NCBI GenBank assembly: GCA_016218545.1
Contig: JACRDQ010000030.1
Span: 256,172 to 320,171 of the forward strand
Length of the DNA stretch: 64,000 nucleotides
Direction: 5' to 3'
From: Elusimicrobiota bacterium
GTDB taxonomy: Bacteria; Elusimicrobiota; Elusimicrobia; UBA1565; UBA9628
Positions 4,453 through 22,286 of the stretch are shown here, one piece after another. Numbering within the stretch: the first letter of the stretch is position 1; each line of letters begins with the position of its first letter. The notes below the pieces were generated by a model. That model ran no database searches, was not told the DNA's origin, and saw only the letters and a list, made by a program, of their open reading frames with translations. A program made the position numbers and the translations under genes.

Positions 4453-4458
4453 GCCTTC

Positions 4459-5157: not shown

Positions 5158-6405
5158 TCAGGCGCCATAGCGGCCGACGAGCTCCTCTTTCGTCTTGCCC
5201 AGGATCCCGTGCTTCCTGCCGACCTTGACGAAGGCCTCCAGCGCGCGGTCGAGGTGGCTCGTCTCGTGGCCGGCCGAGATCTGCGTGCGGATGCGGGCCG
5301 TGCCCGGCGGCACCACGGGGTAGAAGAACCCCACGGCGTAGACGCCCTCGTCGAAGAGGTCCCGGGAGAAGTCCTGGGAGAGCTTGGCGTTGAAGAGCAT
5401 GACCGGCACGATGGGGGTGTCGCCCTCCTTGAGGATGAACCCGGCCTCGGCGAGGCCCTTGCGCCAGTAGGCGGCGTTCCTCTCGAGCTTGTCGCGCCGC
5501 TCCGTGCTCTGGGTCAGCATGTCCAGGACCCGCAGGACCCCGGCGACGACGACCGGCGCGATGGTGTTGGAGAAGAGGTAGGGCCGCGCGCGCTGGCGGC
5601 ACATCTCCACGAGCTCCCGGCGGCCGGAGACGCAGCCGCCCGAGGCGCCGCCCAGGGCCTTGCCGAAGGTCGTGGTGATGAGGTCGACCTTGCCCCGGAC
5701 CCCGTACTTCTCCGGCGTGCCCCGGCCGGTCCTGCCGATGAACCCGGTCGCGTGGGAGTCGTCTACGAAGAGCAGCGCCCCATGAGCCTCGCAGAGGCGC
5801 TCCAGCTCGTCGAGCGGCGCGCAGTCGCCGTCCATGGAGAAGACGCCGTCCGTGATGACGACCTTGAGCCTCCTGCCCGCGTGCTTCTCGAGCAGGGAGG
5901 CCAGGTGCGCCATGTCGCAGTGCTGGTAGATGTCGCGCTGGGCCTTGCAGAGCCGGACGCCGTCGATGATGGAGGCGTGGACGAGCCGGTCCGAGATCAT
6001 GACGTCGCGCTCGCCGAGGACGGCCTCGAAGACGCCGGCGTTGGCGTCCATGCAGGAGGGGAAGAGGATGGTGTCCTCGGTGCCCAGGAACTCGGTCATG
6101 CGGGCCTCGAGCTCCTTGTGGATGTCCTGCGTGCCGCAGATGAAGCGCACGGAGGACATGCCGTAGCCGCGGGCGTCCAGGCCCGCGTGCGCCGCCTTGA
6201 CGACCTCGGGGTGGCTGGAGAACCCGAGGTAGTTGTTGGCGCACATGTTGATGACCTTCCTGGGAGAGGCGCCCGCCGGGAACTCCACTTCGATGTCCGC
6301 GGCCTGGGGGGAGCGGATGAAGCGCTCGGCCTTGAAGAGCCCGGAAGCCCTGATGCCCTCGAGCTCCTTCTGGAATCCCTGACGAACCGTCTCGGTGAAA
6401 GCCAT
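5158..6405 (-). CDS. kbl: Glycine C-acetyltransferase (2-amino-3-ketobutyrate CoA ligase), a PLP-dependent enzyme
   Basis: From MAFTETVRQG it aligns end to end with E. coli Kbl, including SVRFICGTQDIHKELE, SDRLVHASIIDGVRLCKA, DGVFSMDGD, TFGKALGGASGG and FFYPVVPPGTARIRTQISAGH. No tdh gene lies next to it. Confidence 0.85.
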   Translation of the reverse strand: MAFTETVRQGFQKELEGIRASGLFKAERFIRSPQAADIEVEFPAGASPRKVINMCANNYLGFSSHPEVVKAAHAGLDARGYGMSSVRFICGTQDIHKELEARMTEFLGTEDTILFPSCMDANAGVFEAVLGERDVMISDRLVHASIIDGVRLCKAQRDIYQHCDMAHLASLLEKHAGRRLKVVITDGVFSMDGDCAPLDELERLCEAHGALLFVDDSHATGFIGRTGRGTPEKYGVRGKVDLITTTFGKALGGASGGCVSGRRELVEMCRQRARPYLFSNTIAPVVVAGVLRVLDMLTQSTERRDKLERNAAYWRKGLAEAGFILKEGDTPIVPVMLFNAKLSQDFSRDLFDEGVYAVGFFYPVVPPGTARIRTQISAGHETSHLDRALEAFVKVGRKHGILGKTKEELVGRYGA

Positions 6406-6602
6406 GGTCCCTCCCGGTCCTCCGCGCCCCAAGACTACCATGATTGGCCGACGGAATCAACCTCGCGCGGGGCCCTGCCCGGGGCGGTTAGGTAGAACTA
6501 CGGAGTGCCCCTTGGGGCTGCCACGGATTGTGTCCCGGCCGGGGGTTGGGGTACCATGAAGTACCGCCCGGCTCCTCGACACGGCCGGGCAGGAGGACCT
6601 CG

Positions 6603-7295
6603 ATGGACTTCTCAAAGCCGCTCTCCATGACCCCTGAAGGACTCGGTCCGCACGCGCACGCCGCCCTCATCCACCTCTCCCGCCAGGAACAGCTCTCCTT
6701 CGTCGTGCCCTATCACCGCTCAGGGCTCGAGCGCGGGGAGAAGTGCGTCTGTGTGGCCGACGCCGACGGCGTCGAGGCCCTGTGGGCCGCCTTGAGGGCC
6801 GCCGGGGTCGACGCGGCCGGGGCCCTGGCCAAGGGGCAGCTCGCGAGCCTCTCCCCCGAGGAGGTCTACCTGAAGGACGGCCGCTTCGACCCTGCCCCGA
6901 CCTTGGCCGTGTTTCGGGGAGCCATCGAGGAGGCTCGCCGGCAGGGGTTCTCCGGGCTGCGGGTTTCCGCGGACATGACCTGGTCCTGCGGCGGGGCCGC
7001 GGCCATGCCGCTCCTGGCGGACTACGAGGCCGAGGTCAACCGCCTCTTCGAGGACCACCCCTTCGGCGCGGTCTGCCAATACGAATACGGCCGCTTCTCC
7101 GCGGACGCCCTGACCAGGGTCGTCTATACCCACCCCTTGGTGATCTTCGGCGGCAGGGTGCACTGGAACCCCTTCTTCATCCCGCCGAACGAGTACCTCA
7201 GGCCGCGGGACCCCGACGCGGAGCTCACGCGCGTGCTGAGCATGCTCTGCCGGGCGTCCTCCATGCGGGAGCGGCCCGTCCCCGTCGTCGTCTGA
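6603..7295 (+). CDS. MEDS-domain sensory protein (methanogen/methylotroph DcmR sensory domain)
   Basis: Translation starts at MDFSKP after a strong AGGAGG SD. Motifs HAALIHLSRQEQLSFVVPY..GEKCVCVAD..LRVSADMTW..YEYGRF match my memory of the MEDS family. Confidence 0.5.
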   Translation: MDFSKPLSMTPEGLGPHAHAALIHLSRQEQLSFVVPYHRSGLERGEKCVCVADADGVEALWAALRAAGVDAAGALAKGQLASLSPEEVYLKDGRFDPAPTLAVFRGAIEEARRQGFSGLRVSADMTWSCGGAAAMPLLADYEAEVNRLFEDHPFGAVCQYEYGRFSADALTRVVYTHPLVIFGGRVHWNPFFIPPNEYLRPRDPDAELTRVLSMLCRASSMRERPVPVVV

Positions 7296-7314
7296 CGGTC
7301 GGGCCCCCCCGCCG

Positions 7315-8064
7315 ATGAGTTATAATGGAAGGGTGACCCCTGGCAAGGCCGACACGAGCGGGCAGGAGGGGATCCGCTATAAGATCCTGACGGTGGATGA
7401 CGACGCCGAGTGCCTCTCCATGCTGCGGGTCTGCCTGAGCCGAGCCGGCCACACGGTGCTGGCCGCGCGCTCCGCCCGCGAAGCCCTGCTGGCCGCTGTG
7501 GACTCCGGTCCGGACCTCGTCATCTCGGACGTCCAGATGGCGGGCGATGACGGCTTCGAGCTCTCGCGCCGCCTCAAGGCCGGCCCCGCGACCGCGCGCA
7601 TCCCCATCATCCTCCTGTCCGGCGCCAGCAAGGATGTCCGGGACCAGCTCGAGGGCTTCGGCCTCGGGGTCGACGACTATCTGATCAAGCCTTTCGAGCC
7701 GGCCCTCCTCCTGGCCAAGGTCCACGCGGTCCTGCGGCGCTACGCCGTCGCCGAGGAGCTGCGGGACGTGGTGAAGTCCAGGGGCGTGGAGCTCGACGTG
7801 CAGGCGCGCACCGTGTCCTGCTCGGGGTCCCCGGTCGCGCTCAGCCGCAAGGAGTTCGACCTGCTCATCACCCTCATCCGCAAGCGGGGCCATGTCTTGA
7901 GCCCGTCGTTCCTCCTGGAATCGGTCTGGAGCCAGGACCTCGCGGAATACAACGATCCGCGCACGGTGAAGGTCCACATCTCGTCCCTGCGAAAGAAGCT
8001 GCCGCCCGCCGTGGCGCGGCGCATCATGACCGTGCCCGGCTCCGGCTACCGCTTCGACGCCTAG
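7315..8064 (+). CDS. OmpR/PhoB-family response regulator (receiver plus winged-helix domains)
   Basis: The receiver has ILTVDDD ... DLVISDVQMAGDDGFEL ... DDYLIKPF. The C-terminal winged helix has LSRKEFDLLITLI..RTVKVHISSLRKKL. Confidence 0.85.
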   Translation: MSYNGRVTPGKADTSGQEGIRYKILTVDDDAECLSMLRVCLSRAGHTVLAARSAREALLAAVDSGPDLVISDVQMAGDDGFELSRRLKAGPATARIPIILLSGASKDVRDQLEGFGLGVDDYLIKPFEPALLLAKVHAVLRRYAVAEELRDVVKSRGVELDVQARTVSCSGSPVALSRKEFDLLITLIRKRGHVLSPSFLLESVWSQDLAEYNDPRTVKVHISSLRKKLPPAVARRIMTVPGSGYRFDA

Positions 8065-8170
8065 GCGCCGGCGGGCTTCTGCCGTCGACCGCGTCCCTGG
8101 CTTGACCTTTTTTTTACCGCCATCCGGCACACTATGATTGGGGACGGCGGACGTCGCGCCGTACGATGCC

Positions 8171-10285
8171 ATGGAAGAAGACAAGAACAAGAAACTGGCC
8201 TTACGCATCGCCTCGTTGTTGGACGACGTCTCGGAAACGCCGGAGCCCCGGGGCTCCGGCGCTCCGAGCCAGCCGGTCATCTCGCTGAGACCCGCCGTGG
8301 TGGAGGCCCTCCCCGCGGGCGCGGATCTCGGCTCTCCCGCGGTCCAGGCCCCTTCCGAGGTCCTGGCCTCGCCCGAGGTCGGGTCCGCTGTGATGGATAT
8401 CCTGCCCATCTGGGCTGACCCCGACTTTCCTGCGGAGCAGGCCGTGCCCGCGCCGGCCGAAGGGGCCGCGGCCAGCGCGGCCCCCAAGAGGTCCGTGCTG
8501 GTGGTCGACGATGACCGGGACTACCGGCGGATGGTCCGGGCCCTGCTTTCCGGCAACGGCTATGACGTCTACGAGGCCGAGGATGGGCGCCGGGCTCTGC
8601 AGTTGATCGCGCTGCACCGTCCGGACCTGGTGCTCGTGGACTTCAACATGCCGCGGATGAACGGCTACGAGATGATCCAGGAGGTGCGGAGCCGGTTCGA
8701 GACCCGCGCCATTCCGATCATCATGTTCACCGGCGCTTCCAACCGGAGCCACCTGCGGAGCCTGGGCATGGCTATCTCGGATTTCCTGGAGAAGCCGGTG
8801 TCCAATGTCAGGCTGCTGGAGAGCATCTCCAGCGTGCTCGGCGCGGAGCCGTCTCCCGAGCTCATGGGAGCGGAGTCCGCCCCGTCTCCCCGGATCGTTG
8901 CGCCGCCGAAGGCTCCGGAGACGACGCCGTCCCCGAAAGTCGTCGCAGCCGAAACCATGGCTGAGAAGCCTCCGGCGGCGCCGGCGGAGCCCGCTCCGAC
9001 GGGCCTGCCGCCGGAGCCGCTCGAAGAAGGGGACGAGGACGGGACCGAGCTCCTGCAGATCGAGGAGGAGAAGAAGGAGGAGGAGAGGCAGGAGGTCATC
9101 AGCCTCGAGCACCAGGCCAATGAGTCCCCGGTCATCAGCCAGGTGAACCGCATCCTCGTCAAGGCCGTGGGGATGCGCGCCTCCGACATCCACATCGAGC
9201 CTCAGGAGAAGCACATCACGGTCCGCGTGAGGGTCGACGGCACTCTCAAGCTCCTGTGCACCCTGCCCCTCTCCATCCATCCCCGCCTGAGCGCCCGCAT
9301 CAAGATCATGTCCAGCCTGGTCATCACGGAGAGACGCCTTCCCCAGGACGGGCAGTTCAAGACCCAGATCAGGGGCAGCCGGGTCGAGTTCCGGGTGAGC
9401 ACGCTCCCGTGCCTGCACGGCGAGAAGATCGTCATGCGCATCTTGGGCACCAGCAAGCTCAACGCCGATCTGGCCCAGATGAGCCTCCGTCCCCGCGACC
9501 TGGGCTGCGTGGAGAGGGCGCTCAGGACCCCTCACGGCCTCATCCTCGTGACCGGCCCCACCGGGAGCGGCAAGACCACCACCCTCTACACCATGATCAG
9601 CGTCCTCAACAAGCCCGAAGTCAACATCCTGACCGCCGAGGACCCCGTGGAGTACGAGGTGCCGGACATCTCGCAGGTCAAGGTCCTGCCGTCCATCGGC
9701 CTGACCTTCGAGTCCGCTCTGCGGGCCTTCCTGAGGCAGGACCCGGACATCATGCTCATCGGCGAGATCCGCGACCTGGAGACGGCCAACATCGCGGTCA
9801 AGGCCTCTATCACCGGACACCTGGTCTTCTCCACCCTGCATACCAACGGCGCCGTCGCCACCGTGACGAGGCTCGTCCACATGGGGGTGGCGCCCTATCT
9901 CGTCGCGGCCAGCGTCAAGCTCGTGGCGGCCCAGCGCCTGGTCCGGGACCTCTGCCCGTCCTGCAAGGTCCCCGGCGAGGTCTCCGACGACGAGAAGAAG
10001 TTCCTCGCGGAGGAGGAGGTCGCCAGGCTCCGATCCGTCTGGCGGAGCGCGGGGTGTCCCGCCTGCCATCAGACGGGGTACTCGGGGCGCTCGGCCCTCT
10101 TCGAGATCATGCCCCTGGACTCGGCGGCCATGCGCCAGCTCATCTGCGCCGGAGACAAGGCGGAGGAGCTCAACCGTCTGGCCCTTGCGGAGGGCATGAC
10201 CACCCTGCGGCAAGCCGCCTTGGAGGCGGTGGCGCGGGGCACGACCTCGTTGAGCGAGGCGCTCAAGGTCATGCTGGGGGGATGA
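8171..10285 (+). CDS. GspE/PilB-family secretion ATPase with an N-terminal disordered segment and a receiver (REC) domain
   Basis: The REC domain is VLVVDDDRDYRRMV..DLVLVDFNMPRMNGYE..EKP. The ATPase core has SDIHIEP, Walker A GPTGSGKTTT, DIMLIGEIRD, and the tetracysteine CPSC..CPAC. The start could instead be the TTG at 8138; the ATG at 8171 is used here. Confidence 0.8.
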   Translation: MEEDKNKKLALRIASLLDDVSETPEPRGSGAPSQPVISLRPAVVEALPAGADLGSPAVQAPSEVLASPEVGSAVMDILPIWADPDFPAEQAVPAPAEGAAASAAPKRSVLVVDDDRDYRRMVRALLSGNGYDVYEAEDGRRALQLIALHRPDLVLVDFNMPRMNGYEMIQEVRSRFETRAIPIIMFTGASNRSHLRSLGMAISDFLEKPVSNVRLLESISSVLGAEPSPELMGAESAPSPRIVAPPKAPETTPSPKVVAAETMAEKPPAAPAEPAPTGLPPEPLEEGDEDGTELLQIEEEKKEEERQEVISLEHQANESPVISQVNRILVKAVGMRASDIHIEPQEKHITVRVRVDGTLKLLCTLPLSIHPRLSARIKIMSSLVITERRLPQDGQFKTQIRGSRVEFRVSTLPCLHGEKIVMRILGTSKLNADLAQMSLRPRDLGCVERALRTPHGLILVTGPTGSGKTTTLYTMISVLNKPEVNILTAEDPVEYEVPDISQVKVLPSIGLTFESALRAFLRQDPDIMLIGEIRDLETANIAVKASITGHLVFSTLHTNGAVATVTRLVHMGVAPYLVAASVKLVAAQRLVRDLCPSCKVPGEVSDDEKKFLAEEEVARLRSVWRSAGCPACHQTGYSGRSALFEIMPLDSAAMRQLICAGDKAEELNRLALAEGMTTLRQAALEAVARGTTSLSEALKVMLGG

Positions 10286-10286
10286 T

Positions 10287-11048
10287 ATGCCCGGCATGCC
10301 GTTGGTCGAGGCCTTTCGGGGCGACCTCACGACCCAGGAGCTCTGTCGTCGGGGACGCCTCAAGCTCAGGCGTTTCGATCCTCCCGGCTACGCGGAGGCC
10401 GTCGCCTTCTTCTCGGACGCGCGGGAAGGCGATCCGGAGTGCGCGGTCTCCGTGGCCGCCCTGGCCGAAGCCTACTCGCACTGGGGTTTCGCGAGGAAGC
10501 TCATAGGGCAGGAGAGCGAGAGCTATTTCCTCCTGGCTTTCGAGAACGCCTGCTTGGCGCTGGAGATGGCCCCTGAACTCGCCGAGACGCACCGGGCCAT
10601 GGCCGTCTGCCTGAGGCACCGGCCGCGCCGCGGCCCCGAGCAGGGACTCGCCGAGGCGTCGGCAGCGGTGAGGATCAACCCTTACGACGCCATGTCCTGC
10701 TACGAGCTCTGGCGGGCGATGGGCCATGACCCCGAGTCACCCATGATCCACAAGGCCCTGGCGCTCGATCCCGCGCTGCTGACCGTCAACAATGACCTGG
10801 CGGTGTCGCTCATGGAAGCGGAGCGCGCCCAAGAGGCCGGCTTCCATCTGCGCCAGTGCCTGCGGGTCAATTACGAGAACGCGGTGGCCCGATACAACAT
10901 GGTCCTGCTCCTCGCCTGCCGCGGCAAGACCGAGCAGGCGCAGACCCTGCTCGAGGCCTGGCTGAAGGGGCCCGATTTCGAGCCGCTGGTGCGCAGCGGG
11001 AACGCGTCGCTGGCTGACCCGCGCTCCACGGGGGGGATCCTCTTATGA
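10287..11048 (+). CDS. TPR-like repeat protein
   Basis: A helical repeat protein whose start is coupled to the GspE stop and whose end overlaps the kinase start. Confidence 0.55.
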   Translation: MPGMPLVEAFRGDLTTQELCRRGRLKLRRFDPPGYAEAVAFFSDAREGDPECAVSVAALAEAYSHWGFARKLIGQESESYFLLAFENACLALEMAPELAETHRAMAVCLRHRPRRGPEQGLAEASAAVRINPYDAMSCYELWRAMGHDPESPMIHKALALDPALLTVNNDLAVSLMEAERAQEAGFHLRQCLRVNYENAVARYNMVLLLACRGKTEQAQTLLEAWLKGPDFEPLVRSGNASLADPRSTGGILL

Positions 11049-13216
11049 ATCGCTTCCAATCTCCGAGCCAAGATGCCGGGGGCAAGACGCCCGATCAACT
11101 CGGCGCAGAGTTCGTCCTCGAGTTGGGAAGGGCCGTCAAGGTCGTGTCCCTGTACTACGCGAACCACCCGACCGCCCTTCAGACCCTCCGGCAAGTCCAC
11201 GCCATCCTGGAGCGGCTGTTGACCGGCCTTTCCGCGGGGCGCGTCACCTTCTCCCTGGCGGCCGGACGCTGGCTCAGGGATGGTTCCCCCCTGCCTGCCC
11301 CGGGTCCGGGCGCGGACTCCCTGCTCGGCGTGTTCGAGACCCACTCCATCGAGAGCCTCACCTTCCTGGGAGGCATCAGGCCCTTCGAGCTGGTCGCTCT
11401 GGCCGAGGTCGCGGCTTCCGTCCCGACGCGTCCGGGCCGCGCCGCGCTCCAGGAGTTCCTCCAGCAGAGAGGAGTGACCCACATCAAAGCGGACATCGAG
11501 CACTATTCCAAGGAGTCGGCTCCGCAGGGCTCGGACGGTTCCCTGGCGTCCGGCTTGCCGGCCGCCTCCTCGTCCGCTGCCAAGCCCCCTGTCGCGCCTT
11601 CCGTTCTCAGGCCTGCCGCGCCTGCGCCCGCTGGCAAGCCTTCAGCGCCTGCGTCCGCTGCCAAGCCCTCCGCGCCTGCGCCCGCTGGCAAGCCTTCGTC
11701 GCCTGCGCCCGCTGCCAAGCCCTCCGCGCCTGCGCCCGCTGGCAAGCCTTCGTCGCCTGCGCCCGCTGCCAAGCCCTCCGCGCCTGCGTCTGCTGCCAAG
11801 CTTGCCGCGCCGTCGCCTTCGGTCGCTCACAGCGTCCCGGCGCAGCCTCCCAAGCCGGCTCTCCCGCCCGTAGAGGTCCGTGCCTCCGCGGCCGGGATGT
11901 GGGGCCCGCCGTCGAGCCCTGCTCCCGACTCTCACGGGGACAGGCTTGGCGTCAGTTTCGGCAGCGTGCTTCGCAAGCTCGTGGAGACCGCGGTGCAGGA
12001 TCCCGACGAGAGGTCCCACATCTACGAGGACGTGGTGGCCATGGTCAAGGAGACCTTGGACCGCCACGTCGACCAGGCGACGCAGGCGCTCTCGGAGGAG
12101 AAGGCGCGCATCGTCAGGCAGGCCGCCAGGACCGAACGGGTGCTCACCACGGTGGCGGACGGAAAGTTCACCGTGGATAAAGAGGGAAGGGTCCTCATGA
12201 TGAACGCCAGCGCCGAGATGATCACGGGAAAGCGTCTGGCCGACCTCGCGGGCAAGCACATCACCGAGGGCGTCAAGGAGGGGGAGCACATGGTCGCGCT
12301 CGCCGAGGACCTGGCGTCCCCGGCCGTGGACGGAGCAGGGGTCACGGTCGTGGCCGATGAGGCGGTGGGCGGCGCCATGCGCCGCTCCCTGGCCCTGGTC
12401 CGAGACGACGCGGGCCGCGTGGTCGGCACGTACGCCTCCCTCCCCGACGCCGCCAAGTTCAAGGAAGCCCAGCGCCTGCAGGAGGAGTTCCTCTCCCGGG
12501 TGACGCACGACCTCCAGTCCCCGCTGGCCGCCATCTGCAGCGGACTCGAGCTCCTCGCGGACAAGGTCAGCTCCGTGGGCGGTCCCGAGACGGCCCAGTA
12601 CATCGACATCTGCATGCGCAACAGCCGTCACCTCTCGGGGATGATCCGCGAGATCCTCGATTTCTCGAAGCTCGACTCGGGCAAGATGACGGTGCACCCG
12701 GCCCCTGTCTCGGCCTCAAGCCTCCTCAAGGAGGCGGTGGAGAGCCTCCAGCCCTGGGCCAAGACCAGGAAGCTCCGCCTGGAAGCGCGTTCTGCCCACG
12801 CGGATTTCTCGGTGCTGGCGGACCAGCCGCGCGTCGTCCAGGTGCTGACCAACCTCATCTCGAACGCGGTCAAGTCCACAAAGGAAGGGGGCTCGATCAC
12901 CGTGGCGGCGGTCCCGGCAGCGGAGGACGGGCAGGGGATCTTCGCGGTGAAGGACACGGGGAGCGGGATCTCCCCTGAGGACCTCGGCCGCATCTTCGAG
13001 AAGTTCGTCCAGGTCGGGGACGGCCGCAGGGACGGGGTGGGACTCGGGCTTTCCATCGTCCAGGAGTTCGTCCGATTGCACGGCGGCGCGGTCTGGGCCG
13101 AGAGCGAGCCCGGCAAGGGTTCGGTGTTCTACTTCACGCTCCCCTTGTCGCAAGCCGGAGTCATCGGCCCCGCGGCGCAGGAGGTCCTGCCGCCTTCGGG
13201 GCGGCCCCGGCACTGA
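11045..13216 (+). CDS. Sensor histidine kinase with an N-terminal domain, a Pro/Ala-rich repeat linker, a PAS-like region, HisKA and HATPase_c
   Basis: H-box SRVTHDLQSPLAAI, N-box NLISNAVKST, and G-boxes DTGSGI and GVGLGLSIV. It shares an operon with the regulator, the REC-GspE fusion and the TPR protein. Confidence 0.8.
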   Translation: MNRFQSPSQDAGGKTPDQLGAEFVLELGRAVKVVSLYYANHPTALQTLRQVHAILERLLTGLSAGRVTFSLAAGRWLRDGSPLPAPGPGADSLLGVFETHSIESLTFLGGIRPFELVALAEVAASVPTRPGRAALQEFLQQRGVTHIKADIEHYSKESAPQGSDGSLASGLPAASSSAAKPPVAPSVLRPAAPAPAGKPSAPASAAKPSAPAPAGKPSSPAPAAKPSAPAPAGKPSSPAPAAKPSAPASAAKLAAPSPSVAHSVPAQPPKPALPPVEVRASAAGMWGPPSSPAPDSHGDRLGVSFGSVLRKLVETAVQDPDERSHIYEDVVAMVKETLDRHVDQATQALSEEKARIVRQAARTERVLTTVADGKFTVDKEGRVLMMNASAEMITGKRLADLAGKHITEGVKEGEHMVALAEDLASPAVDGAGVTVVADEAVGGAMRRSLALVRDDAGRVVGTYASLPDAAKFKEAQRLQEEFLSRVTHDLQSPLAAICSGLELLADKVSSVGGPETAQYIDICMRNSRHLSGMIREILDFSKLDSGKMTVHPAPVSASSLLKEAVESLQPWAKTRKLRLEARSAHADFSVLADQPRVVQVLTNLISNAVKSTKEGGSITVAAVPAAEDGQGIFAVKDTGSGISPEDLGRIFEKFVQVGDGRRDGVGLGLSIVQEFVRLHGGAVWAESEPGKGSVFYFTLPLSQAGVIGPAAQEVLPPSGRPRH
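11630..11819 (+). repeat. Seven tandem 27-nt units, including a perfect 54-bp duplication, encoding (A/G)KPS(A/S)PAPA inside the kinase gene
   Basis: Segments 11658-11711 and 11712-11765 are identical in sequence. Flanking units are degenerate copies. Confidence 0.7.
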
Positions 13217-15177: not shown

Positions 15178-15710
15178 CCCCTCAGGTAGAACCTCAGGTT
15201 CTCGACGAGGTCCACGGCCTTGCCGAGCTGGTACTGGCAGGACTCGAGCTCCTTGGCCAGCGAGTCCTCGGGGAGGCTCGCGCGCGCCTCCTCGGCCAGG
15301 AGTTTCAGCGAGGCCCCGGCGTTGACGAGGAGGCTCTTGAGCTCCCGGGTCATGACCGAGGCCGTCTGGTTGGCCGACTCCTCGCGCCGGGTCTGGTCGA
15401 GCGCGGTGTCGAAGGCCGTCTTCTGGGCCTGGGCCGCGGTCTCCTCGACCTCGGAGACCTTCATCCTGGAGGCGATGAGCGCGGCGTGCTCGCGCTCGAG
15501 GTCCCGGCGGACCTCGACGAGCTGGCTCTCGCAGCGCGCGACCTTGGCCCGGAGCTTGCCGATGAGCGCCTCGCGCTGGCGGATCGGGTCGAGGAGCTTG
15601 CGGATGCGCTCGACCGGGCCGCGGAGCGACTGGGGCAGGCGGCTGGAGAGCTCCTTGAGCGCGGCGTCGGCCCTCTCGAGCGCGGCCTGGCTGAACGCCA
15701 TGTTCATATT
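15174..15710 (-). CDS. Coiled-coil hypothetical protein
   Basis: MNMAFSQAALERADAALKEL... is predicted helical throughout. Its stop overlaps the substrate-binding protein start (ATGA). Confidence 0.45.
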   Translation of the reverse strand, partial: NMNMAFSQAALERADAALKELSSRLPQSLRGPVERIRKLLDPIRQREALIGKLRAKVARCESQLVEVRRDLEREHAALIASRMKVSEVEETAAQAQKTAFDTALDQTRREESANQTASVMTRELKSLLVNAGASLKLLAEEARASLPEDSLAKELESCQYQLGKAVDLVENLRFYLRG

Positions 15711-15839
15711 ATGGCAAAAATACCCGGGAAAATGGGGAAAAGCCCGCCGGGTCGGGAAAAACATGATTTCCGTCATTTGAATTAAACGTCCCAAACGGAT
15801 AAAATATGTTTTGCCCTTGAGTTCTTCCGGGGCCTTCCA

Positions 15840-16805
15840 GTGCCGACCCGAACGCAGACGACGACCAGCCTCGAGGCTTCCCTGGGACGGGTGCGCGCAG
15901 GCATGCAAGCCCGCGCCAAGCGCATCTCCGGCCGCGTGGGCTCCGCCCTGGCCGAGCACGTGTCCCGGCCGGGCAAGATGCTCCGGGCGAGGTTCGCGGT
16001 CCAGGTCGGGGCCGCCCTCGGGGTGGCGCCGGGAAAGACCGAGACGGTCGCCCGCGCCATGGAGCTGGCGCACAACGCCTCTCTCCTCCACGACGATTGC
16101 GTCGACGACGCCTCCCTGCGTCGGGGCCTGCCCACGCCCAACAGCGTCTACGGCTCGACCGTGGCGCTCCTCCTGGGGGACATCGCCTTCACCCAGTCGC
16201 TCGAGGAGGCGCTCGAACTCGGCCCCAAGGCCGTGGAGCGCCTCGTGAGCGCGGCGCGCGAGATGGCCATCGGCGAGCTCCAGGAGGAGTTCCTGCGCGG
16301 CTCCGTGGACGTGACCCTCGAGTCCTACATGGGGGTCGCGGCGCGCAAGACCGGGGCCCTCTTCGAGTGGGGCGGCTTGACGCTCTCGGACCTAAGCCCC
16401 CTCGAGCACGCGGCCGCCGACCCCGCCAGGCTGGGCTCGGCGCTCGGCATCCTCCTGCAGATGGTCGACGACATCCACGACTACACCCTGACGGACGCCG
16501 TGGCCGGCAAGGAGCGGGCCAAGGACGCCAAGATCGGGCGCGTGACCCTTCCCGGGGTCTTTGCGCTCGCGGACGCCTCCCGCCGGGGGCGCTTCCTCGA
16601 GTTGTGGGCCGCGCTGCGCCGGGACCCGCGCGCCGCCTCGGACCTGGCGCGCTTCCTCGACGAGAGCGGGTCGCTCGACGAGGCCCGCGCCGAGTGCCGC
16701 AAGGTGGTCGGGACCATCCTCGAGCTGACCCGGCGCCTGCCGGTCCGGGGAGAGGTCGACGAGGTGGCCGAGTTCGTCTCGGCCATGGCCGAGAGGGAAT
16801 TCTGA
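15840..16805 (+). CDS. Trans-polyprenyl diphosphate synthase (IspB/hepta- or octaprenyl-PP synthase family), or possibly a ComQ-like isoprenyl transferase
   Basis: GTG start. First Asp-rich motif LLHDDCVDDASLRRG, second motif MVDDIHDY, and GKERAKDAKIGRVTLP. It is the first gene of the radical-SAM operon. Confidence 0.85.
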   Translation: MPTRTQTTTSLEASLGRVRAGMQARAKRISGRVGSALAEHVSRPGKMLRARFAVQVGAALGVAPGKTETVARAMELAHNASLLHDDCVDDASLRRGLPTPNSVYGSTVALLLGDIAFTQSLEEALELGPKAVERLVSAAREMAIGELQEEFLRGSVDVTLESYMGVAARKTGALFEWGGLTLSDLSPLEHAAADPARLGSALGILLQMVDDIHDYTLTDAVAGKERAKDAKIGRVTLPGVFALADASRRGRFLELWAALRRDPRAASDLARFLDESGSLDEARAECRKVVGTILELTRRLPVRGEVDEVAEFVSAMAEREF

Positions 16806-17002
16806 TGGGCTACGCCGACCTCATCCGGCGGGCCTGGCGGACCGGGCGCTTCGCCGCCTCGGTCCGGTCGTCCGGGAAGAAGGGCGCCGCGGGCGTCCGT
16901 CCCGGGGAGAGCCGCGGCTCCATCCGCGGCGAGATGGAAGAGATCGTCCGCCGCGAGTCCGCCGACGCGCTCGGCTTCCTCGCGCCGCGCGGGGAGGGAA
17001 TC

Positions 17003-17254
17003 ATGAAGCTCGCACCGTTCGTGAAATTCCGTGAAGAGAAGTTCGGCGCGGTCCTGTTCGAGACCCGTTCCGAGAAGGTGTTCACCCTCAATCCGACGGC
17101 CGCGGACGTGGTGCGGGAGCTCCTCGCCGGCGCCTCGGAGGGCGAGATCGGAGAGCGCCTCAAGGGCCGCTACAGCGACCCCTCGGGCAGGCTCGCCGAC
17201 GAGGCCAAGGCCCTCGTGCGCCAGCTCCGCGACAAGGGGCTCATCGCGGACTAG
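17003..17254 (+). CDS. PqqD-family peptide chaperone (RiPP recognition element)
   Basis: MKLAPFVKFREEKFGAVLFETRSEKVFTLNPTAADVVRELLAGASEGEIGERL..LRDKGLI has the PqqD/MftB pattern. A strong SD (GGGGAGGG) sits 5 nt upstream of the ATG at 17003. The in-frame extension back to 16805 is possible but less likely. Confidence 0.7.
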   Translation: MKLAPFVKFREEKFGAVLFETRSEKVFTLNPTAADVVRELLAGASEGEIGERLKGRYSDPSGRLADEAKALVRQLRDKGLIAD

Positions 17255-17255
17255 C

Positions 17256-18254
17256 ATGGCTTCGAGGAAGGACGCGGTCAAGGCCGGAGGCCGGGCGTCC
17301 CGGGCGCCCTTGGAAGAGGCGTTGGCGCCCGGGATGCGGGCGCCGCTCTACATCGGCTGGCAGCTGACCAATGCCTGCGACCTGGCGTGCGTCCACTGCA
17401 TCGAGGAGTCCGGGCCGGGCCGCGCCTTCAAGGACGAGCTGACCCGGGAGCAGGCCTTCCGTATCCTCGAGCAGATCAAGACCGAGCAGGTGCCCTACGT
17501 CGCCTTCTCCGGGGGCGAGCCCTTCCTCCACCCGCACTTCCTGGAACTGGCCGCGTTCCTCGGAGACGCCGGGGTGTCGCTCAAGGTCGAGACCAACGGC
17601 CGCCACCTCACCGAGGCGGCCGCCTCGGCGCTGCGGGACCACGGAGTCCGGGCCGTGCAGGTCAGCCTCGACGGCGCCACCCCCGAGGCCTACCGCAAGG
17701 TGCGGCCCTCCGGCGACCACGCCCGGGTCCTGGCAGGCATCCGCCTCCTGCGCTCCAGGGGCGTGGAGGTGGAGGTCAACTTCGTCCCGACGCGGCACAA
17801 CGTCCATGAGATCGGAGCCGCCGTGGACCTGGCCTTCAGCGAGGGGGTCTCCGGCTTCTACACGGGCAGGCTCATCCTGGCCGGCCACGCCGCCAAGGCG
17901 CGGGACCTGGCCCCGACCCAGGAGCAGTACGACGCCTTCTTCGCGTGCCTCAAGGCCAAGGCCCAGGAGTACAAGGGCCGCATGACCGTGCGCTATCACG
18001 AGCTGGGCATCGCGCAGGAGGTCCGCTACCGCATGGCCAACCCCGCGGCCCTCTTCGTCATCCTGCCCGACGGCAGGGTGAAGCTCCTCAACGCCCTGCC
18101 GTTCGTGTGCGGCGACCTGCGCGAGCAGAGCCTCACCGAGGTCTGGAAGGCCTTCCTCGCGGGCTGGAAGTCGCCGCGGGTGGCCGACTTCGTCGGCCGC
18201 CTGGAGGCCGACCCCGGGCTCCTGCAAGGACTGCACCGATGGATCCCTTTGTGA
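17256..18254 (+). CDS. Radical-SAM enzyme, PqqE/MftC-like core without the full SPASM cysteine set (paralog 1)
   Basis: WQLTNACDLACVHC is a CxxxCxxC motif. FSGGEPFLHPHF is the SAM-binding motif. The C-terminus ILPDGRVKLLNALPFVCGDL looks like a vestigial half-SPASM with a single Cys. Confidence 0.85.
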   Translation: MASRKDAVKAGGRASRAPLEEALAPGMRAPLYIGWQLTNACDLACVHCIEESGPGRAFKDELTREQAFRILEQIKTEQVPYVAFSGGEPFLHPHFLELAAFLGDAGVSLKVETNGRHLTEAAASALRDHGVRAVQVSLDGATPEAYRKVRPSGDHARVLAGIRLLRSRGVEVEVNFVPTRHNVHEIGAAVDLAFSEGVSGFYTGRLILAGHAAKARDLAPTQEQYDAFFACLKAKAQEYKGRMTVRYHELGIAQEVRYRMANPAALFVILPDGRVKLLNALPFVCGDLREQSLTEVWKAFLAGWKSPRVADFVGRLEADPGLLQGLHRWIPL

Positions 18255-19198
18255 CCGAGTCCGGCGTGGAGACCGACGGCCGCGCCGCTCCGGCCCGCGG
18301 CGGCGGGAGCGGGCGGCCGAATCTGGCCCTGCGGATGGCGTCTGCGGTGCGCTACCGCTTCTTCCTGTACGCGGGACTCCTCCCGTACTTCCTCGGCGCG
18401 GCCTGGGCCCTGCGCATGGAGGGAGCCTTCGCGCCCGGCCGCTTCTGGCTGGGCCTGCTGGGCATCGGCCTGTCCGTCGTGGGTGTTGAGTCCTTCAACG
18501 AGTACTTCGACGCGCGCATGGGCACGGACCGCGTCTTCAACCCTTCCGACGACGAGTACATCCCCGCCTGGATGCTCTGGCTGGGGGTCGCGGCGTTCGC
18601 GGCCGCGGCGTGCGTGGGCATGGCCCTGGCCCATGCCGGAGGCTGGCCCATCCTCCTCTACATGGGGCTGGGCGGCATGGCCGCGGCCTTCTACGTGGGC
18701 CCGCCTTTCCGCTGGGCCTACCTGGGCCTCGGCGAGACCTCGATCGCCTTGTCCTACGGGCCCTGGATGACCCTGGGCAGCATCCACCTGCACACGGGCG
18801 CTTTCTCCTGGCGCGGCCTGGCGGCCGCGCTCGTGCCCGGCTTGCTGGTGGCGTCGCTCGCCGTGGTCAACGAGATCCCGGATTTCCACCAGGACCGGCT
18901 CGTGGGCAAGCGCAACCTCGTGGTGCGGCTGGGCCGCAGGAACGGGGTCGCCCTGTACCTCGCCCTGGCCGGGGCGGGCTTGGCCGCGTGCTTCGCAGGC
19001 GCGGCCGCGGGCTGGTTCCCGGTCGCGTGCGGCCTGGCCGGGGCCCTGGGCCTGCCGTGCTGGTTCTCGAGCGCTCGGACCGCGGTCAAGGCGTGGGACA
19101 CGCCGCGGCTTTTCGTGCCCGCGGTGCGGGACATCGTGCAGTGCTATCTCGTGACCGTGAGCGCCTTCATCATGGCGCTCGCCGTGAGGCTGCCGTGA
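18239..19198 (+). CDS. UbiA-family membrane prenyltransferase (MenA/UbiA-like)
   Basis: A polytopic protein. NEYFDARMGTD is an NxxxDxxxD-like Asp-rich motif, and a second motif is VNEIPDFHQD. It overlaps the upstream radical-SAM gene by 16 nt and the downstream one by 4 nt. Confidence 0.75.
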   Translation: MDPFVTESGVETDGRAAPARGGGSGRPNLALRMASAVRYRFFLYAGLLPYFLGAAWALRMEGAFAPGRFWLGLLGIGLSVVGVESFNEYFDARMGTDRVFNPSDDEYIPAWMLWLGVAAFAAAACVGMALAHAGGWPILLYMGLGGMAAAFYVGPPFRWAYLGLGETSIALSYGPWMTLGSIHLHTGAFSWRGLAAALVPGLLVASLAVVNEIPDFHQDRLVGKRNLVVRLGRRNGVALYLALAGAGLAACFAGAAAGWFPVACGLAGALGLPCWFSSARTAVKAWDTPRLFVPAVRDIVQCYLVTVSAFIMALAVRLP

Positions 19199-20109
19199 GG
19201 ATCGCGTCCTTCGACGTTCCCCTGGCCGCTGCCTGGCGCCTGACCGACCGGTGCGACCTCTCCTGCCGGCACTGCCTCAACGCTTCCGGGCCCAAGGCTG
19301 ACACGGCCGCCGAGCTCTCCCGGCCCGAGGCTCTCAAGCTGGCCCGGAGCATCGGCTCAGCCCAGGTCCCCTACGTCATCCTCTGCGGGGGCGAGCCCAT
19401 GCTGAGCCCCGACTTCTGGCAGGCGGCCGAGACCCTGGGCGAGGCAGGCGCGTGGCTCAAGGTGGAGACGCACGGCCAGAACCTCGGGCGCACCCAGGCG
19501 GAGCGCCTGGCCAAGCTCCCCATCCGCTCGGTCCAGGTCTCTCTCGACGGGGTCACCCAGCAGGCTTACGAGTCCCTGCGGCCAGGGGCCTCCCTGGCCA
19601 AGACCTTGGAAGCTTGCCGCGAGGTGCGGCGTCAAGGCATGCCCCTCGAGATCTCCTTCGTCCCGGTCCAGGGCAACATCCACGAGGCTCCGGCGGTCAT
19701 CGACCTGGCCCTGGACCTGGGCGCCTTCCGGTTCAACACCGGGACCCTCATCAAGCGCGGCCGCGCCGCAGCCGCTTGGAAGAAGCTCCTTCCTGATGCC
19801 GAGTCCATGGCAGGCTTGCTCGCGGTCCTCACCCGTCGCGAAGCCACCCTGGCCGGGAGGCTCGAGCTCTGCTTCAGGCCTTTCAATTTCGAAGACCAGG
19901 TCCGCGCCGAACGCGCGGAGCCCTCAGGCACGCTCACGATCCTGCCTGACGGCAAGGTCCCTGTCTCGGCCTCCTCGGACGTCGTCTGCGCCGACCTTCG
20001 GACGCAGACGGTCAGGGAGGCCTGGCGCGCTTACTTGGCGGCGCACGGCAAGGGGCCACGATCGGAAAGATGGGTCGGCTCGTGTCTTGAGCCGGCTACC
20101 CGGTCCTAG
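19195..20109 (+). CDS. Radical-SAM enzyme, paralog 2
   Basis: The GTG start overlaps the UbiA stop (GTGA), with GAGG 5 nt upstream. Motifs WRLTDRCDLSCRHC, CGGEPMLSPDF, KVETHG, VQVSLDG, LPDGKVP..VVCADL. Confidence 0.75.
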   Translation: MRIASFDVPLAAAWRLTDRCDLSCRHCLNASGPKADTAAELSRPEALKLARSIGSAQVPYVILCGGEPMLSPDFWQAAETLGEAGAWLKVETHGQNLGRTQAERLAKLPIRSVQVSLDGVTQQAYESLRPGASLAKTLEACREVRRQGMPLEISFVPVQGNIHEAPAVIDLALDLGAFRFNTGTLIKRGRAAAAWKKLLPDAESMAGLLAVLTRREATLAGRLELCFRPFNFEDQVRAERAEPSGTLTILPDGKVPVSASSDVVCADLRTQTVREAWRAYLAAHGKGPRSERWVGSCLEPATRS

Positions 20110-20129
20110 GCCGGGATTTAGGAGACAGC

Positions 20130-20255
20130 ATGAGAGACAAGAAGAACGTGACGGATGGAAAGGCGAAGGCCGACAAGAAGCCCGTGTGGCAGACCCCTTC
20201 TCTCGAAGAGGTCACCGAGCGTGTCATGGCCCAGCCGTACATCAGGTTCACGTGA
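20130..20255 (+). CDS. Candidate 41-aa RiPP precursor peptide
   Basis: MRDKKNVTDGKAKADKKPVWQTPSLEEVTERVMAQPYIRFT. GGAGA lies 5 nt upstream of the ATG. It is the only gap in an otherwise overlapping operon, and its TGA stop overlaps the GTG of the next radical-SAM gene. Confidence 0.5.
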   Translation: MRDKKNVTDGKAKADKKPVWQTPSLEEVTERVMAQPYIRFT

Positions 20256-21226
20256 CGCACCCGAGGGGGGCGGCGGTAGGAGACTACCGCGCCCCCCTCT
20301 TTGTCGCGTGGCAACTCACCAACCGCTGCCGCGGCCGCTGCCTGGCCTGCTGCGAGGAATCCGGTCCGGGCAAGGGAATCCGCCAAGGCGGGTCCTGGCA
20401 GGCTGAGCTCACCAAGCAGGAAGCCCTCCGCGTCAGCCGCGACATCGCGGCCTCCGGGGTCTCCTACGTGGCGTTCGGCGGGGGGGAACCCATGGAGGTG
20501 CCGCACTTCTGGGACATCCTCTCCATCCTCTCCAAGGGCGGGGTCCGCATCAAGATCGAGACCAACGGCGGGACCATCGGCCGCTCCCAGGCCAAGCGCC
20601 TCTCCGCCTTGGGCGTGTCCTCCATCCAGATCAGCCTCGACGGCCCCACGGCCCGCGAGCACGAGGCCTTGAGGCCCGGCTCGAGCTTCAACAAAGCGGT
20701 CCGGGCGGTCCGCTGTCTGGCTGAGGAAGGGCTCGGGCCTGAGGTCGTGTTCATCCCCATGAAGAGGAACGTGGGCCAGGCCGTCAAGGTCTACCGATTG
20801 GCGGCCAGTCTCGGAGCCAGGGTGCTTGCGACCGGCCCTCTCATGCGCCTGGGACGCGCCGGAGCAGCATGGAAGGAACTCGCCCCGTCGGCCGGGCGAT
20901 GGCGGACCGCGGTCCGGGCGCTCAAGGCCGAGGCCGCCCGTGCCAAGGCAGGGCCCAAGCTCTCCATCTATCCCTGGGGCATCCAGAGGGAGATCGAGAC
21001 CAGGCTCGAGCATCCCCAGGCCATGGTCCTCGTGGTGCCTGACGGCAAGGTCAAGCTCCTCAATGCCCTCCCTTTTGCTCCAGGCGACCTGCGGCGACAC
21101 TCCCTGGCCCAGGCCTGGACGCGCTGCCTCGGAGCTTGGCGCGACCCCAAGGTGCGGGCTTTCTGCCGCAAGGCCGTGAAGGACCCCGGGCTCCTGGCGC
21201 ACGCCAACGAATGCTGGCCCGCCTAA
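20252..21226 (+). CDS. Radical-SAM enzyme, paralog 3, closest to paralog 1
   Basis: WQLTNRCRGRCLACC is a CxxxCxxC motif. Also FGGGEPMEVPHF, KIETNG, IQISLDG, VVPDGKVKLLNALPFAPGDLRRHSLAQAW. The start is inferred as the GTG at 20252; no alternative in-frame start follows the downstream GGAGAC. Confidence 0.7.
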   Translation: MTHPRGAAVGDYRAPLFVAWQLTNRCRGRCLACCEESGPGKGIRQGGSWQAELTKQEALRVSRDIAASGVSYVAFGGGEPMEVPHFWDILSILSKGGVRIKIETNGGTIGRSQAKRLSALGVSSIQISLDGPTAREHEALRPGSSFNKAVRAVRCLAEEGLGPEVVFIPMKRNVGQAVKVYRLAASLGARVLATGPLMRLGRAGAAWKELAPSAGRWRTAVRALKAEAARAKAGPKLSIYPWGIQREIETRLEHPQAMVLVVPDGKVKLLNALPFAPGDLRRHSLAQAWTRCLGAWRDPKVRAFCRKAVKDPGLLAHANECWPA

Positions 21227-22286
21227 TCCAAGCAGGCTGAGAAGAGCGCGGGGAGCTCGCCGAGCCTGCCCGCCTCGGCGAGCTTGCCCAGGTCGAAGAG
21301 GATGAGGCCTCCGGAGCCTCCCTGCCAGGCGGCGTCGGCGGCGGCCCTGAGCTCGCCGGGTCCGAGGGGATGCTCCGCGTCTCCCACGAAGATGATGGGC
21401 CAGACCGGCTTGCCCGAATCGGCCTTGACGGCCATGGAGGCGTCCGTGATCCAGGACGCGGGCCTGCGCAGGAGCGCGTGGTACGCCATGGGCGAGACCA
21501 CGTCCGCTGCCCTGCCCATGAGGCGGTGGTCCTGGCCGAGGATCTCGAGGACGGCCCCGCGCTTCTCCGAGCGCTCCCAGGGCACGGCGAAGTAGCCCAC
21601 CAGGGCCGCGGGGTCGGCCGCGTGGACCGCGTCTGCGACCTCGCTGACGAGGCCCGCGATGCTCGCGGTCTTGAACGCGGTCCAGCGCTCCTTGTGGTCC
21701 GACAGGATCCAGCGCGCCTTCTCCCTGGCCGTGAGCTCCTCCGGGACCGCGACCCCGGTTTCCTTGCGGAACTCCCTCAGGCACACCGGGCAGAAGCAGG
21801 TCTGCTCGAGATGGGGCTCGGGGACCTCCCAGTGGCCGGGATAGCGGATGAAGTCGAGCCACACGCCGTCGACTTCCTGCTTGCGCACCAGGGACACGGC
21901 GCGCTTCTTGATGTCCAGCCTGAGCCAAGTCTGGTTGGGGCAGACGGCGGCGTACCACTTGACCTTGGCGAGGGGTTCGCCGACCTCGCTGACCGGCCTG
22001 CTCTCGGGCCGCGTCTTCCAATGACGCTCTCCCGCGAAGGCTGTGAGCTCCGCGAACACGCGGATGCCACGGCCGCGCAGGGCCTTGCGGAGGAGCGGGT
22101 CCTTGTAGCCGCCGAAGACCGCGTTCACGCCCCAGGAGGAGAGGGCCTCGGCGATCCGCTCCGGGGTCTTGCCCTTGAAGGCCGCGGACTTGGGGTCGAA
22201 GCCGTAGACCCCGCACACCGGTCCGGCGTCAGCGGCAAGAGCGGGCTGGACCGCGAGGATGAGGCCGGCGAGGATGAGGAGGAGCA

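Follow-up and report, generated by a model that had tools for sequence, protein, structure and literature searches.

Gene organization at the locus

The window analysed here comprises 64,000 nucleotides of contig JACRDQ010000030.1 from an Elusimicrobiota bacterium and has a guanine-plus-cytosine (GC) content of 70%. Frame analysis and domain searches delimited a plus-strand operon of seven genes at 15840–21226, which encodes a polyprenyl diphosphate synthase, a PqqD-family protein, three radical S-adenosylmethionine (rSAM) enzymes (rSAM1 to rSAM3), a membrane prenyltransferase and, between the rSAM gene that stops at 20109 and the next rSAM gene, a 41-codon open reading frame (ORF), which is the subject of this work. 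As read from the window sequence, this ORF extends from ATG 20130 to TGA 20255 and encodes MRDKKNVTDGKAKADKKPVWQTPSLEEVTERVMAQPYIRFT. With a probability of roughly 0.7, we regard it as the precursor peptide of a pathway of the type that yields peptides made on the ribosome and modified after translation (RiPPs), in this case giving a polyprenylated, cofactor-like membrane product. The coordinates of the features are listed in Table 1.

Table 1. Features of the peptide cassette and the evidence on which each was assigned.
Feature	Position	Strand	Basis
Sigma-70-like promoter candidate, TTGAAT-17-TAAAAT	15777–15805	+	Consensus match only; 1 site vs 0.2 expected
Polyprenyl diphosphate synthase, 321 aa	15840–16805	+	Pfam PF00348, 2e-40
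PqqD-family peptide-binding protein (RiPP recognition element, RRE), 149 aa	16805–17254	+	PF05402, 3.2e-11
rSAM1, 332 aa, CX3CX2C, without the SPASM cysteine set	17256–18254	+	PF04055, 5e-26
MenA/UBIAD1-like membrane polyprenyltransferase, 319 aa	18239–19198	+	PF01040, 3e-15
rSAM2, 304 aa, GTG start	19195–20109	+	PF04055, 1.8e-19
Ribosome-binding site of the peptide gene, AGGAGA	20120–20125	+	Seen in the sequence itself
Peptide gene, 41 aa plus stop	20130–20255	+	ORF read, homologues, codon-level selection
Leader motif W20-Q-T-P-S-L-E-E-V-T29	20187–20216	+	Family form W-x-x-P-x-[LMI]-E-[DE]-V-[ST]
C-terminal core V32-M-A-Q-P-Y-I-R-F-T41, stop directly after	20223–20252	+	Codon test, conservation
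Stable RNA hairpin, starting in the last peptide codons and burying the rSAM3 GTG	20248–20311	+	−48.3 kcal/mol, z = −6.6
rSAM3, 324 aa, CX3CX2CC, without auxiliary-cluster cysteines	20252–21226	+	PF04055, 3.6e-21

An earlier sequence-only reading had described the ORF as a precursor-type peptide for the adjacent rSAM and PqqD genes. Its limits and translation proved exact when the sequence was re-read, and homologues, codon-level selection and conserved synteny bear out the assignment. The ribosome-binding site is also present, with AGGAG 5 nt and GGAGA 4 nt from the ATG, so that the spacing of 5 nt previously given for GGAGA was off by 1 nt. As had been noted, the peptide stop codon (TGA, 20253–20255) overlaps the rSAM3 start codon (GTG, 20252–20254) as GTGA. 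A second GTGA overlap joins the prenyltransferase and rSAM2 genes (19195–19198), and the synthase stop overlaps the PqqD start as TGATG (16803–16807). These start/stop overlaps suggest tight translational coupling along the operon.

The peptide is read in the frame 20130 mod 3 = 0, which is that in which third-position GC peaks within the gap between the two rSAM genes. It thereby differs in frame, as previously claimed, from the long ORFs that cross the gap on either strand (19796–21226, plus; 20096–22216, minus), which are spurious, GC-driven artefacts. The earlier reading had named a start of rSAM3 upstream of 20252, overlapping the peptide frame, as evidence that would count against the ORF. 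This is not the case, because rSAM3 orthologues start at the same place, with the same 4-nt overlap in loci L003, L004 and L005, and their N-termini align; in loci L001 and L006, the orthologue begins 4–21 nt past the peptide stop.

Family, selection and motifs of the peptide

The initial search with the peptide retrieved 12 small proteins with invariant W, P and EEV and the C-terminal sequence RVMAQPYIRFT. A profile was then searched against 1.84 billion cluster representatives (50% identity), which returned 97 matches at E up to 0.001, of which 92 were found on inspection to be proteins of 30–78 aa with the motif at their end. The same approach against 5.8 billion clusters at 90% identity returned 2711 clusters. 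A scan of one genome per GTDB species yielded 96 confirmed loci; its pattern, RVMAQPYI, is Elusimicrobia-specific, hence all matches came from that phylum. At least 600 pattern matches and at least 540 confirmed loci were obtained from metagenome contigs. Carriers of the family belong to Elusimicrobiota, Betaproteobacteria, Planctomycetota and Thermodesulfobacteriota.

The family consensus reads W-x-x-P-x-[LMI]-E-[DE]-V-[ST]-x-x-[VI]-M-A-Q-P-Y-I-R-F-T-stop, with the stop codon directly after Thr in every member. Within the leader motif, the frequencies are 0.98 for W, 0.99 for P, 0.93 for E, 0.99 for D/E, 1.00 for V and 1.00 for S/T, and each core position is conserved at 0.98 or above, except for the first (V/I). 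Residues 1–19 of the window peptide form the variable N-terminal region, which in the family varies in length (29–78 aa for the whole peptide) and in net charge (−7 to +12). The Lys-rich N-terminal half recorded in the sequence-only reading is thus a feature of this lineage and not of the family.

In 87 loci, the last 23 codons were present in 69 distinct nucleotide versions, and these served to assess selection at the codon level. Over these 23 codons, 15540 synonymous and 6310 non-synonymous pairwise differences were counted; over the last 10 codons, the figures were 7528 and 0, respectively. Judged from these substitutions, the ORF of 41 codons is a genuine gene, evidently translated and strongly selected, with its C-terminus under extreme purifying selection.

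PqqD-like domains recognize the leaders of lasso peptides by a Y-x-x-P-x-L motif. On this model, the PqqD-like protein presumably docks at W-x-x-P-x-L-E-[DE]-V, which lies within W20–T29 of the window peptide, and [VI]MAQPYIRFT is taken as the core and presumed modification site.

Two further peptide genes were recorded. The complete genome of Betaproteobacteria bacterium GR16-43 (CP019169.1, locus L006) encodes a 51-aa homologue, MSEPKLSIDKPGVPQEPTTRKAIPSDKQPWETPKMEDVSEEVMAQPYIRFT, at 8842–8997, in a gap of ~170 nt without a called gene between two rSAM genes. The peptide gene is thus absent from some genome annotations, and the only record of the exact window peptide comes from a Logan assembly, with none at NCBI, so that the family is under-annotated. 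Separately, the metagenome-assembled genome (MAG) STD1_166, whose main cassette is locus L039, carries an additional, divergent peptide gene copy, MERLKIDNETVSGCKPEWETPVIDEVTDRVMAQPYIRFT, at 906–1007 of a 4.6-kb contig (L082) on which no cassette genes were detected. This copy may be an orphan extra precursor.

Conservation of the gene cluster

The check on synteny proposed in the earlier reading gave a positive answer, as all 80 species-level loci from Elusimicrobia were collinear with the window. Of these, 51 were complete, 25 were cut by contig ends and four were ambiguous in the paralogue label only. Their flanks consist of housekeeping genes that differ between loci, and no conserved neighbours were found beyond the seven genes in the Elusimicrobia loci, so that the seven genes form a self-contained unit.

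In Betaproteobacteria, exemplified by the complete genome CP019169 and by MAGs of Usitatibacter and Casimicrobiaceae, the order is PqqD–rSAM–UbiA–rSAM–peptide–rSAM, without the synthase. A second architecture, peptide–PqqD–rSAM–UbiA, with or without a polyprenyl synthase and with one or occasionally two rSAMs, was found in loci whose peptides were attributed to Planctomycetota and Thermodesulfobacteriota. Across all arrangements, the peptide is always accompanied by a PqqD-like protein, one to three PqqE/MftC-like rSAMs and a MenA/UBIAD1-like prenyltransferase, often together with a polyprenyl diphosphate synthase. The second architecture thus defines the minimal conserved set as peptide, PqqD, one rSAM and prenyltransferase.

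The three rSAM paralogues share 51, 48–49 and 53–57% identity (rSAM1, rSAM2 and rSAM3, respectively) with their betaproteobacterial counterparts, compared with 34–46% between paralogues. For rSAM2, the values are 48–49% against the second betaproteobacterial paralogue and 34–43% against the other paralogues. On these identities, a single rSAM gene appears to have been triplicated, with each copy orthologous between Elusimicrobia and Betaproteobacteria, which makes the triplication old.

A short gene beside the genes for a PqqD/RRE protein and an rSAM maturase, in conserved synteny, is the generic mark of an RRE-dependent rSAM RiPP precursor, and this is the arrangement found here. No Pfam or NCBIfam model of a PqqD/rSAM/UbiA cassette and no description of one in the searchable literature were found, and a plasmid search for annotated, cultured examples gave no match. 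We class the cassette as an RRE-dependent rSAM type of RiPP pathway, with a substantial chance of a new product class.

In one Elusimicrobia MAG (L012), a 500-aa Fic-domain gene at 9214–10716 is inserted between the peptide gene and rSAM3, and a 75-nt fragment resembling the rSAM3 5' end remains beside the peptide.

Enzymes of the cassette

None of the cassette proteins reached the cutoff of any NCBIfam model. For the polyprenyl diphosphate synthase, the equivalog models that matched best were those of solanesyl, heptaprenyl, geranylgeranyl (IdsB) and octaprenyl synthases, none of which reached its cutoff. The protein resembles medium- and long-chain enzymes, and a medium- or long-chain product is predicted because the residues ahead of the first DDxxD motif are small (HNASLLHDDCVDD), as in known polyprenyl synthases.

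In the PqqD-family protein, the PqqD domain spans residues 82–147 and follows an N-terminal extension of ~65 aa. Its best NCBIfam match was the lasso-peptide PqqD chaperone NF033530 (47 bits vs a cutoff of 70), and it scored 23.2 bits against the MftB model (cutoff 33). Gene calls in loci L001, L002 and L004 give proteins of 146–149 aa. In L006, a 149-aa Elusimicrobia PqqD query aligned by tblastn to 5570–6007, with 44% identity over ~146 aa, and this alignment extends ~190 nt upstream of the betaproteobacterial PqqD gene as annotated (83 aa). The extension may therefore be conserved in L006 and the shorter gene call mis-started.

The top NCBIfam matches of the prenyltransferase, and most of its matches overall, were models of 1,4-dihydroxy-2-naphthoate (DHNA) polyprenyltransferase, with best scores of 102.3 bits vs a cutoff of 264 for the window protein and 109.8 vs 277 for that of locus L090. 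Since the equivalog-level score is not reached, the enzyme is assigned from its sequence to the UbiA superfamily as MenA-like but not MenA. Both Asp-rich motifs, NEYFDARMGTD and PDFHQDRLVGKRN, are intact and conserved across phyla, and the only sequence relative in the PDB is human UBIAD1 (8djk).

MftC was the best NCBIfam match of all three rSAMs, at 99–128 bits vs a cutoff of 265, with the highest value for rSAM1. No SPASM match was obtained with Pfam for rSAMs 1–3. Only C26, C30, C33 and C34 are invariant among 43 rSAM3 orthologues, and one further cysteine recurs across the paralogues, in LPF[VI]CGDLR. Given the missing SPASM match and the invariance of the SAM-cluster cysteines only, auxiliary Fe–S clusters are very unlikely in the cassette rSAMs. 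The AlphaFold2 model of rSAM3 (predicted local distance difference test score 86.7) has the RiPP maturases SkfB, PqqE and SuiB as its predicted nearest solved folds, and a sequence search of solved structures retrieved SkfB and PqqE, plus BlsE.

Respiratory gene neighbourhood

Marker genes were searched by tblastn in 80 metagenome loci and five further loci. One-rSAM loci for which 700 nt or more of upstream sequence was available numbered 36, and in 19 of these the gene directly upstream, on the same strand, was nqrE or nqrF. Five loci, L091, L121, L133, L142 (e.g. 92–8000) and L162, have the cassette placed between nqrE and nqrF, and the polyprenyl synthase gene lies 5' of nqrA in L091 and L121. 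With NCBIfam, NqrD scored 259 bits vs a cutoff of 235, and NqrB, NqrE and NqrF fell just under their cutoffs, which bears out the NQR type. Neighbours of the CymA/MtrAB type are common at betaproteobacterial loci: MtrA and/or MtrB porin-cytochrome genes adjoin the cassette in the betaproteobacterial-type loci L006, L007, L089, L155 and L170, and L006, L007 and L089 also carry a gene for a CymA/NapC-type tetrahaem quinol dehydrogenase. In the thermodesulfobacterial locus L088, a molybdopterin oxidoreductase with an Fe–S subunit is encoded upstream of the cassette. Other loci lie amid genes of central metabolism or housekeeping, so the respiratory link is frequent but not universal.

Other observations were made in the same loci. 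The NqrA-like subunit of the cassette-bearing operon has an RnfC-like C-terminal domain with two [4Fe-4S] motifs and is thus an NQR/RNF hybrid. A gene of ~150 aa without a Pfam or NCBIfam match recurs after nqrF (L091, 13199–13654). In L090 and L091, a histidine kinase and a response regulator follow the cassette.

Proposed pathway and product

In the pathway that we propose, the PqqD-like protein would bind the leader through W-x-x-P-x-L-E-[DE]-V-[ST] and deliver the decapeptide [VI]MAQPYIRFT to one or more rSAM enzymes. These would act on the core by radical chemistry, for which the candidates are a C–C cross-link or an oxidative change at the Tyr/Phe ring, or at the free C-terminus. The MenA-like enzyme would then add a long polyprenyl chain to give a membrane-anchored product. 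The sequence-only reading had hinted at a polyprenyl mass shift, which fits the predicted MenA-like prenyltransferase and polyprenyl synthase of the operon.

The product most likely serves anaerobic respiratory chains as a lipid-anchored redox carrier or cofactor, rather than being an antibiotic or signal, because the core is invariant across phyla, as in PqqA and MftA, and because the cassette occurs within nqr operons and adjacent to CymA/NapC–MtrAB modules. We tentatively extend this to a new respiratory carrier, in which the core would serve as head-group precursor of a polyprenylated membrane electron carrier, although we hold this extension to be more doubtful than probable. Such a carrier would be a ribosomally encoded lipoquinone or a lipid-anchored peptide cofactor, built anaerobically by RRE-guided rSAM chemistry and a MenA-like prenyltransferase, a proposal that we put forward with equal reserve. 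Its users, on a similarly speculative footing, might be NQR-type NADH dehydrogenases and CymA/Mtr-type modules in Planctomycetota, Betaproteobacteria, Thermodesulfobacteriota and Elusimicrobiota.

Several points weigh against the proposed pathway and product. Each chemical step is deduced from homology and gene neighbourhood, and the polyprenyl chain might be attached to a molecule other than the peptide. Genes for a leader protease, a hydroxylase or a methyltransferase are missing from the cassette, which leaves the release or redox activation of a small quinone-like head group unexplained. About half of the one-rSAM loci are not beside nqr genes, with L128 lying among tricarboxylic acid cycle genes, and the varying housekeeping flanks of the Elusimicrobia loci, including the window, offer no respiratory hint. 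Finally, the core Tyr is replaced by Phe in a small sub-clade (…MAQPFIRFT; P0208, P0221, P0222 and P0224) and by Cys in P0219. These variants, which bear on the question of which residue is modified, argue against an essential phenol.

Some of these points would suit a prenylated peptide natural product without a redox role, such as a lipopeptide antibiotic, a signal or a membrane-anchored peptide in the manner of ComX or the cyanobactins. The same gene set would serve, with the rSAMs cross-linking or otherwise tailoring the core and the UbiA-like enzyme lipidating it; the missing protease is compatible with a product that stays peptidic; the Elusimicrobia neighbourhoods are silent on respiration; and Tyr-to-Phe variants are tolerated. 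We nevertheless consider it unlikely. The cores of antibiotic and signalling RiPPs usually diversify, whereas this one is invariant over thousands of clusters from four phyla. Among the loci examined, no gene dedicated to export or immunity and none for a leader peptidase was found in or beside the cassette, and the cassette is interleaved with nqr genes and adjoins CymA/Mtr modules. The likeness to known prenylated RiPPs is limited to a ribosomal peptide combined with prenyl transfer. Cyanobactins and ComX rely on soluble ABBA-type or ComQ-type enzymes, short C5–C15 donors and variable cores, in contrast to the integral-membrane UbiA-superfamily enzyme, probable long-chain donor and invariant core of the cassette.

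Less probable still is that the operon makes two products, namely a soluble cofactor similar to pyrroloquinoline quinone (PQQ) or mycofactocin and an ordinary isoprenoid quinone from a non-peptide head group. This would account for the MenA-like nature of the prenyltransferase, for the betaproteobacterial cassettes without a polyprenyl synthase of their own, and for the lack of a cassette enzyme with an obvious role in freeing an aromatic head group from the peptide. Against it, the peptide–PqqD–rSAM–UbiA unit is intact in two gene orders and at least four phyla, further men or ubi genes do not occur together with the UbiA-like gene in the loci examined, and all MenA models score far below their cutoffs. 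The cassette does share with the MenA/UBIAD1 step a full-length MenA-like prenyltransferase with both Asp-rich motifs, its pairing with a medium-/long-chain-like synthase and its ties to quinone-dependent modules. It differs in that the prenyltransferase reaches only 102–110 bits vs cutoffs of 264–277, no other men or mqn genes are nearby, and its partners are a peptide, an RRE protein and rSAMs, which to our knowledge are used by no known quinone pathway.

We know of few cofactors that derive from ribosomal peptides, PQQ and mycofactocin among them, and of no respiratory lipid carrier made in this way. The cassette unites the recognition and rSAM logic of RiPPs with a UbiA-superfamily membrane prenyltransferase, and the family is abundant, with thousands of clusters from groundwater, soil and sediment and a near-identical core over four phyla. 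If the redox carrier holds true, it would constitute a new class of membrane electron carrier with a new oxygen-independent biosynthetic route, and it might explain how some anaerobes supply NQR- and CymA-type enzymes. Even when read conservatively, the cassette defines a RiPP class that is new and is marked by a core of 10 residues, a defined leader motif and four genes as the minimal set.

Comparison with known precursor families

No significant NCBIfam or Pfam model was found for the window peptide. The family was further compared with precursor models by a lenient NCBIfam scan of 64 members. The PqqA model TIGR02107 did not match the window peptide even at E up to 10 and matched one of the 64 members (E = 0.035). 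The lasso precursor model NF033524 (paeninodin family) gave weak leader matches in 14 of the 64, with a best E of 0.0043.

The sequence-only reading had pointed to a KKP box and an EVT..Tyr arrangement as PqqA-like elements and to a KxxxW motif as in streptide-type Lys–Trp crosslinked peptides, and these parallels do not extend to the family. The KKP box is lineage-specific. Lys occurs at W−4 in only 42 of 229 members (18%), and the Trp itself forms part of the conserved leader motif, 12 residues before the invariant core. As to the Glu/Tyr pair, Tyr occupies position −5 and the conserved acidic residues positions −16 and −15, a spacing of 10–11 residues, compared with E-x-x-x-Y in PqqA; the residue 7 before Tyr is E in 50% and G in 32%, and in a few members Phe replaces Tyr. 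The resemblance to PqqA thus appears generic, in that an invariant core follows a leader of the kind bound by PqqD-type domains, and does not amount to membership.

Candidate families were rejected as follows. For PqqA, in addition to the unmatched model and the missing E-x-x-x-Y, neither pqqB nor pqqC was found among the Pfam-scanned neighbours and locus tables. For MftA, there was no NCBIfam match, the C-terminus is IRFT in every member instead of GVY, the MftB and MftC models stayed below cutoff, and no MftD, MftE or MftF domains were found in the loci examined. For lasso peptides, no lasso cyclase (Asn-synthetase-like) or B2 protease was found in these loci, and the core VMAQPYIRFT has no acidic residue, whereas lasso cores carry Asp/Glu at position 7–9. 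A streptide-type peptide was discarded on account of the non-conserved Lys, the location of Trp in the leader and the missing SPASM match of the rSAMs. SCIFF, sactipeptide and ranthipeptide assignments were set aside since the window peptide has no Cys, as previously noted for the first two, and Cys occurs within the last 22 residues in only six of 234 family members. Proteins of the SynChlorMet cassette (ScmD 17 vs 100; ScmE/F up to 79 vs 400) and the GeoRSP cassette (rSAM up to 89 vs 400) were far below cutoff.

Of the known systems, the PqqA/PqqD/PqqE system of PQQ is similar in its short peptide with a variable N-terminus and an invariant core, its PqqD-family chaperone and its cofactor-like conservation, and the top structural matches of the rSAM3 model include PqqE (6c8v). 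The PqqA leader has a similar W-x-x-P-x-hydrophobic-x-acidic start. Unlike PQQ loci, the cassette has no E-x-x-x-Y, pqqB, pqqC or pqqF, its rSAMs have no SPASM cysteines, and it adds a prenyltransferase and a polyprenyl synthase. Mycofactocin has in common with it the MftC-like rSAMs, a PqqD protein that weakly matches MftB, a conserved core that ends at the C-terminus, as in MftA, and a presumed role as redox cofactor. In contrast, the peptide ends in RFT and not GVY, MftD/E/F are missing, and a prenyltransferase takes the place of the glycosyltransferase. As for the paeninodin family of lasso peptides, the aromatic-x-x-P-x-L-E-x-V..M-A leader weakly resembles Y-x-x-P-x-L, and the PqqD protein is best matched, below cutoff, by NF033530. 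The cassette differs by the lack of a cyclase, a B2 protease and a macrolactam-forming acidic core residue, and by the presence of rSAMs and a prenyltransferase.

Membership in a named precursor family, be it PqqA, MftA, lasso or streptide-type KxxxW, could be argued from the PqqD-family partner, the rSAM matches to MftC and PqqE, the EVT, Tyr and K-x-x-x-W elements of the window peptide and the weak lasso-model matches. It is very improbable, given the lack of a significant model, of E-x-x-x-Y and of a C-terminal Val-Tyr, the low frequency of Lys at W−4, the missing pqqB/C, mftD/E/F, lasso cyclase and lasso protease genes among the neighbours, and rSAMs that appear to lack the auxiliary clusters of StrB, SuiB, PqqE and MftC.

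RNA hairpin after the peptide gene

The hairpin at the end of the peptide gene has an inner stem GAGGGGGGCG...CGCCCCCCTC, followed by a T-rich tail. In the equivalent 100-nt window of 75 distinct Elusimicrobia loci, the median z was −3.9, compared with ~0 in three control windows (p = 4e-35), and four stem pairs show compensatory double changes, i.e. covariation across Elusimicrobia. The hairpin is not general among the one-rSAM loci. By reference to what is known of other RiPP operons, it probably raises the precursor-to-enzyme ratio, and it may attenuate or stabilise the precursor transcript.

A strong hairpin over the downstream start codon could suggest translational control, and short ORFs abound in DNA of 70% GC, yet that the peptide ORF arose by chance in a GC-rich gap, or serves solely for regulation as an upstream ORF, is hardly credible in view of the perfect amino-acid-level purifying selection in the core despite heavy synonymous change, and of the conservation of the peptide across phyla, also in the other gene order with PqqD rather than an rSAM next to it.

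Flanking features of the window

The promoter candidate lies in the low-GC gap ahead of the operon (GC dip at 15550–15999). The downstream neighbours of the operon, an unknown protein and then purH, are convergent with it, and the upstream neighbours are divergent. Further upstream, a signalling block on the plus strand (6492–13216), with no evident link to the cassette, encodes a MEDS-domain protein, an OmpR-type response regulator, a TPR protein and a PAS histidine kinase, as well as a T2SSE/PilB-like ATPase fused to an N-terminal receiver domain (8138–10285), which is an unusual fusion. A HemN-like rSAM gene (Radical_SAM plus HemN_C; 34676–35857, plus strand) lies 13 kb downstream and is unrelated to the cassette rSAM paralogues.

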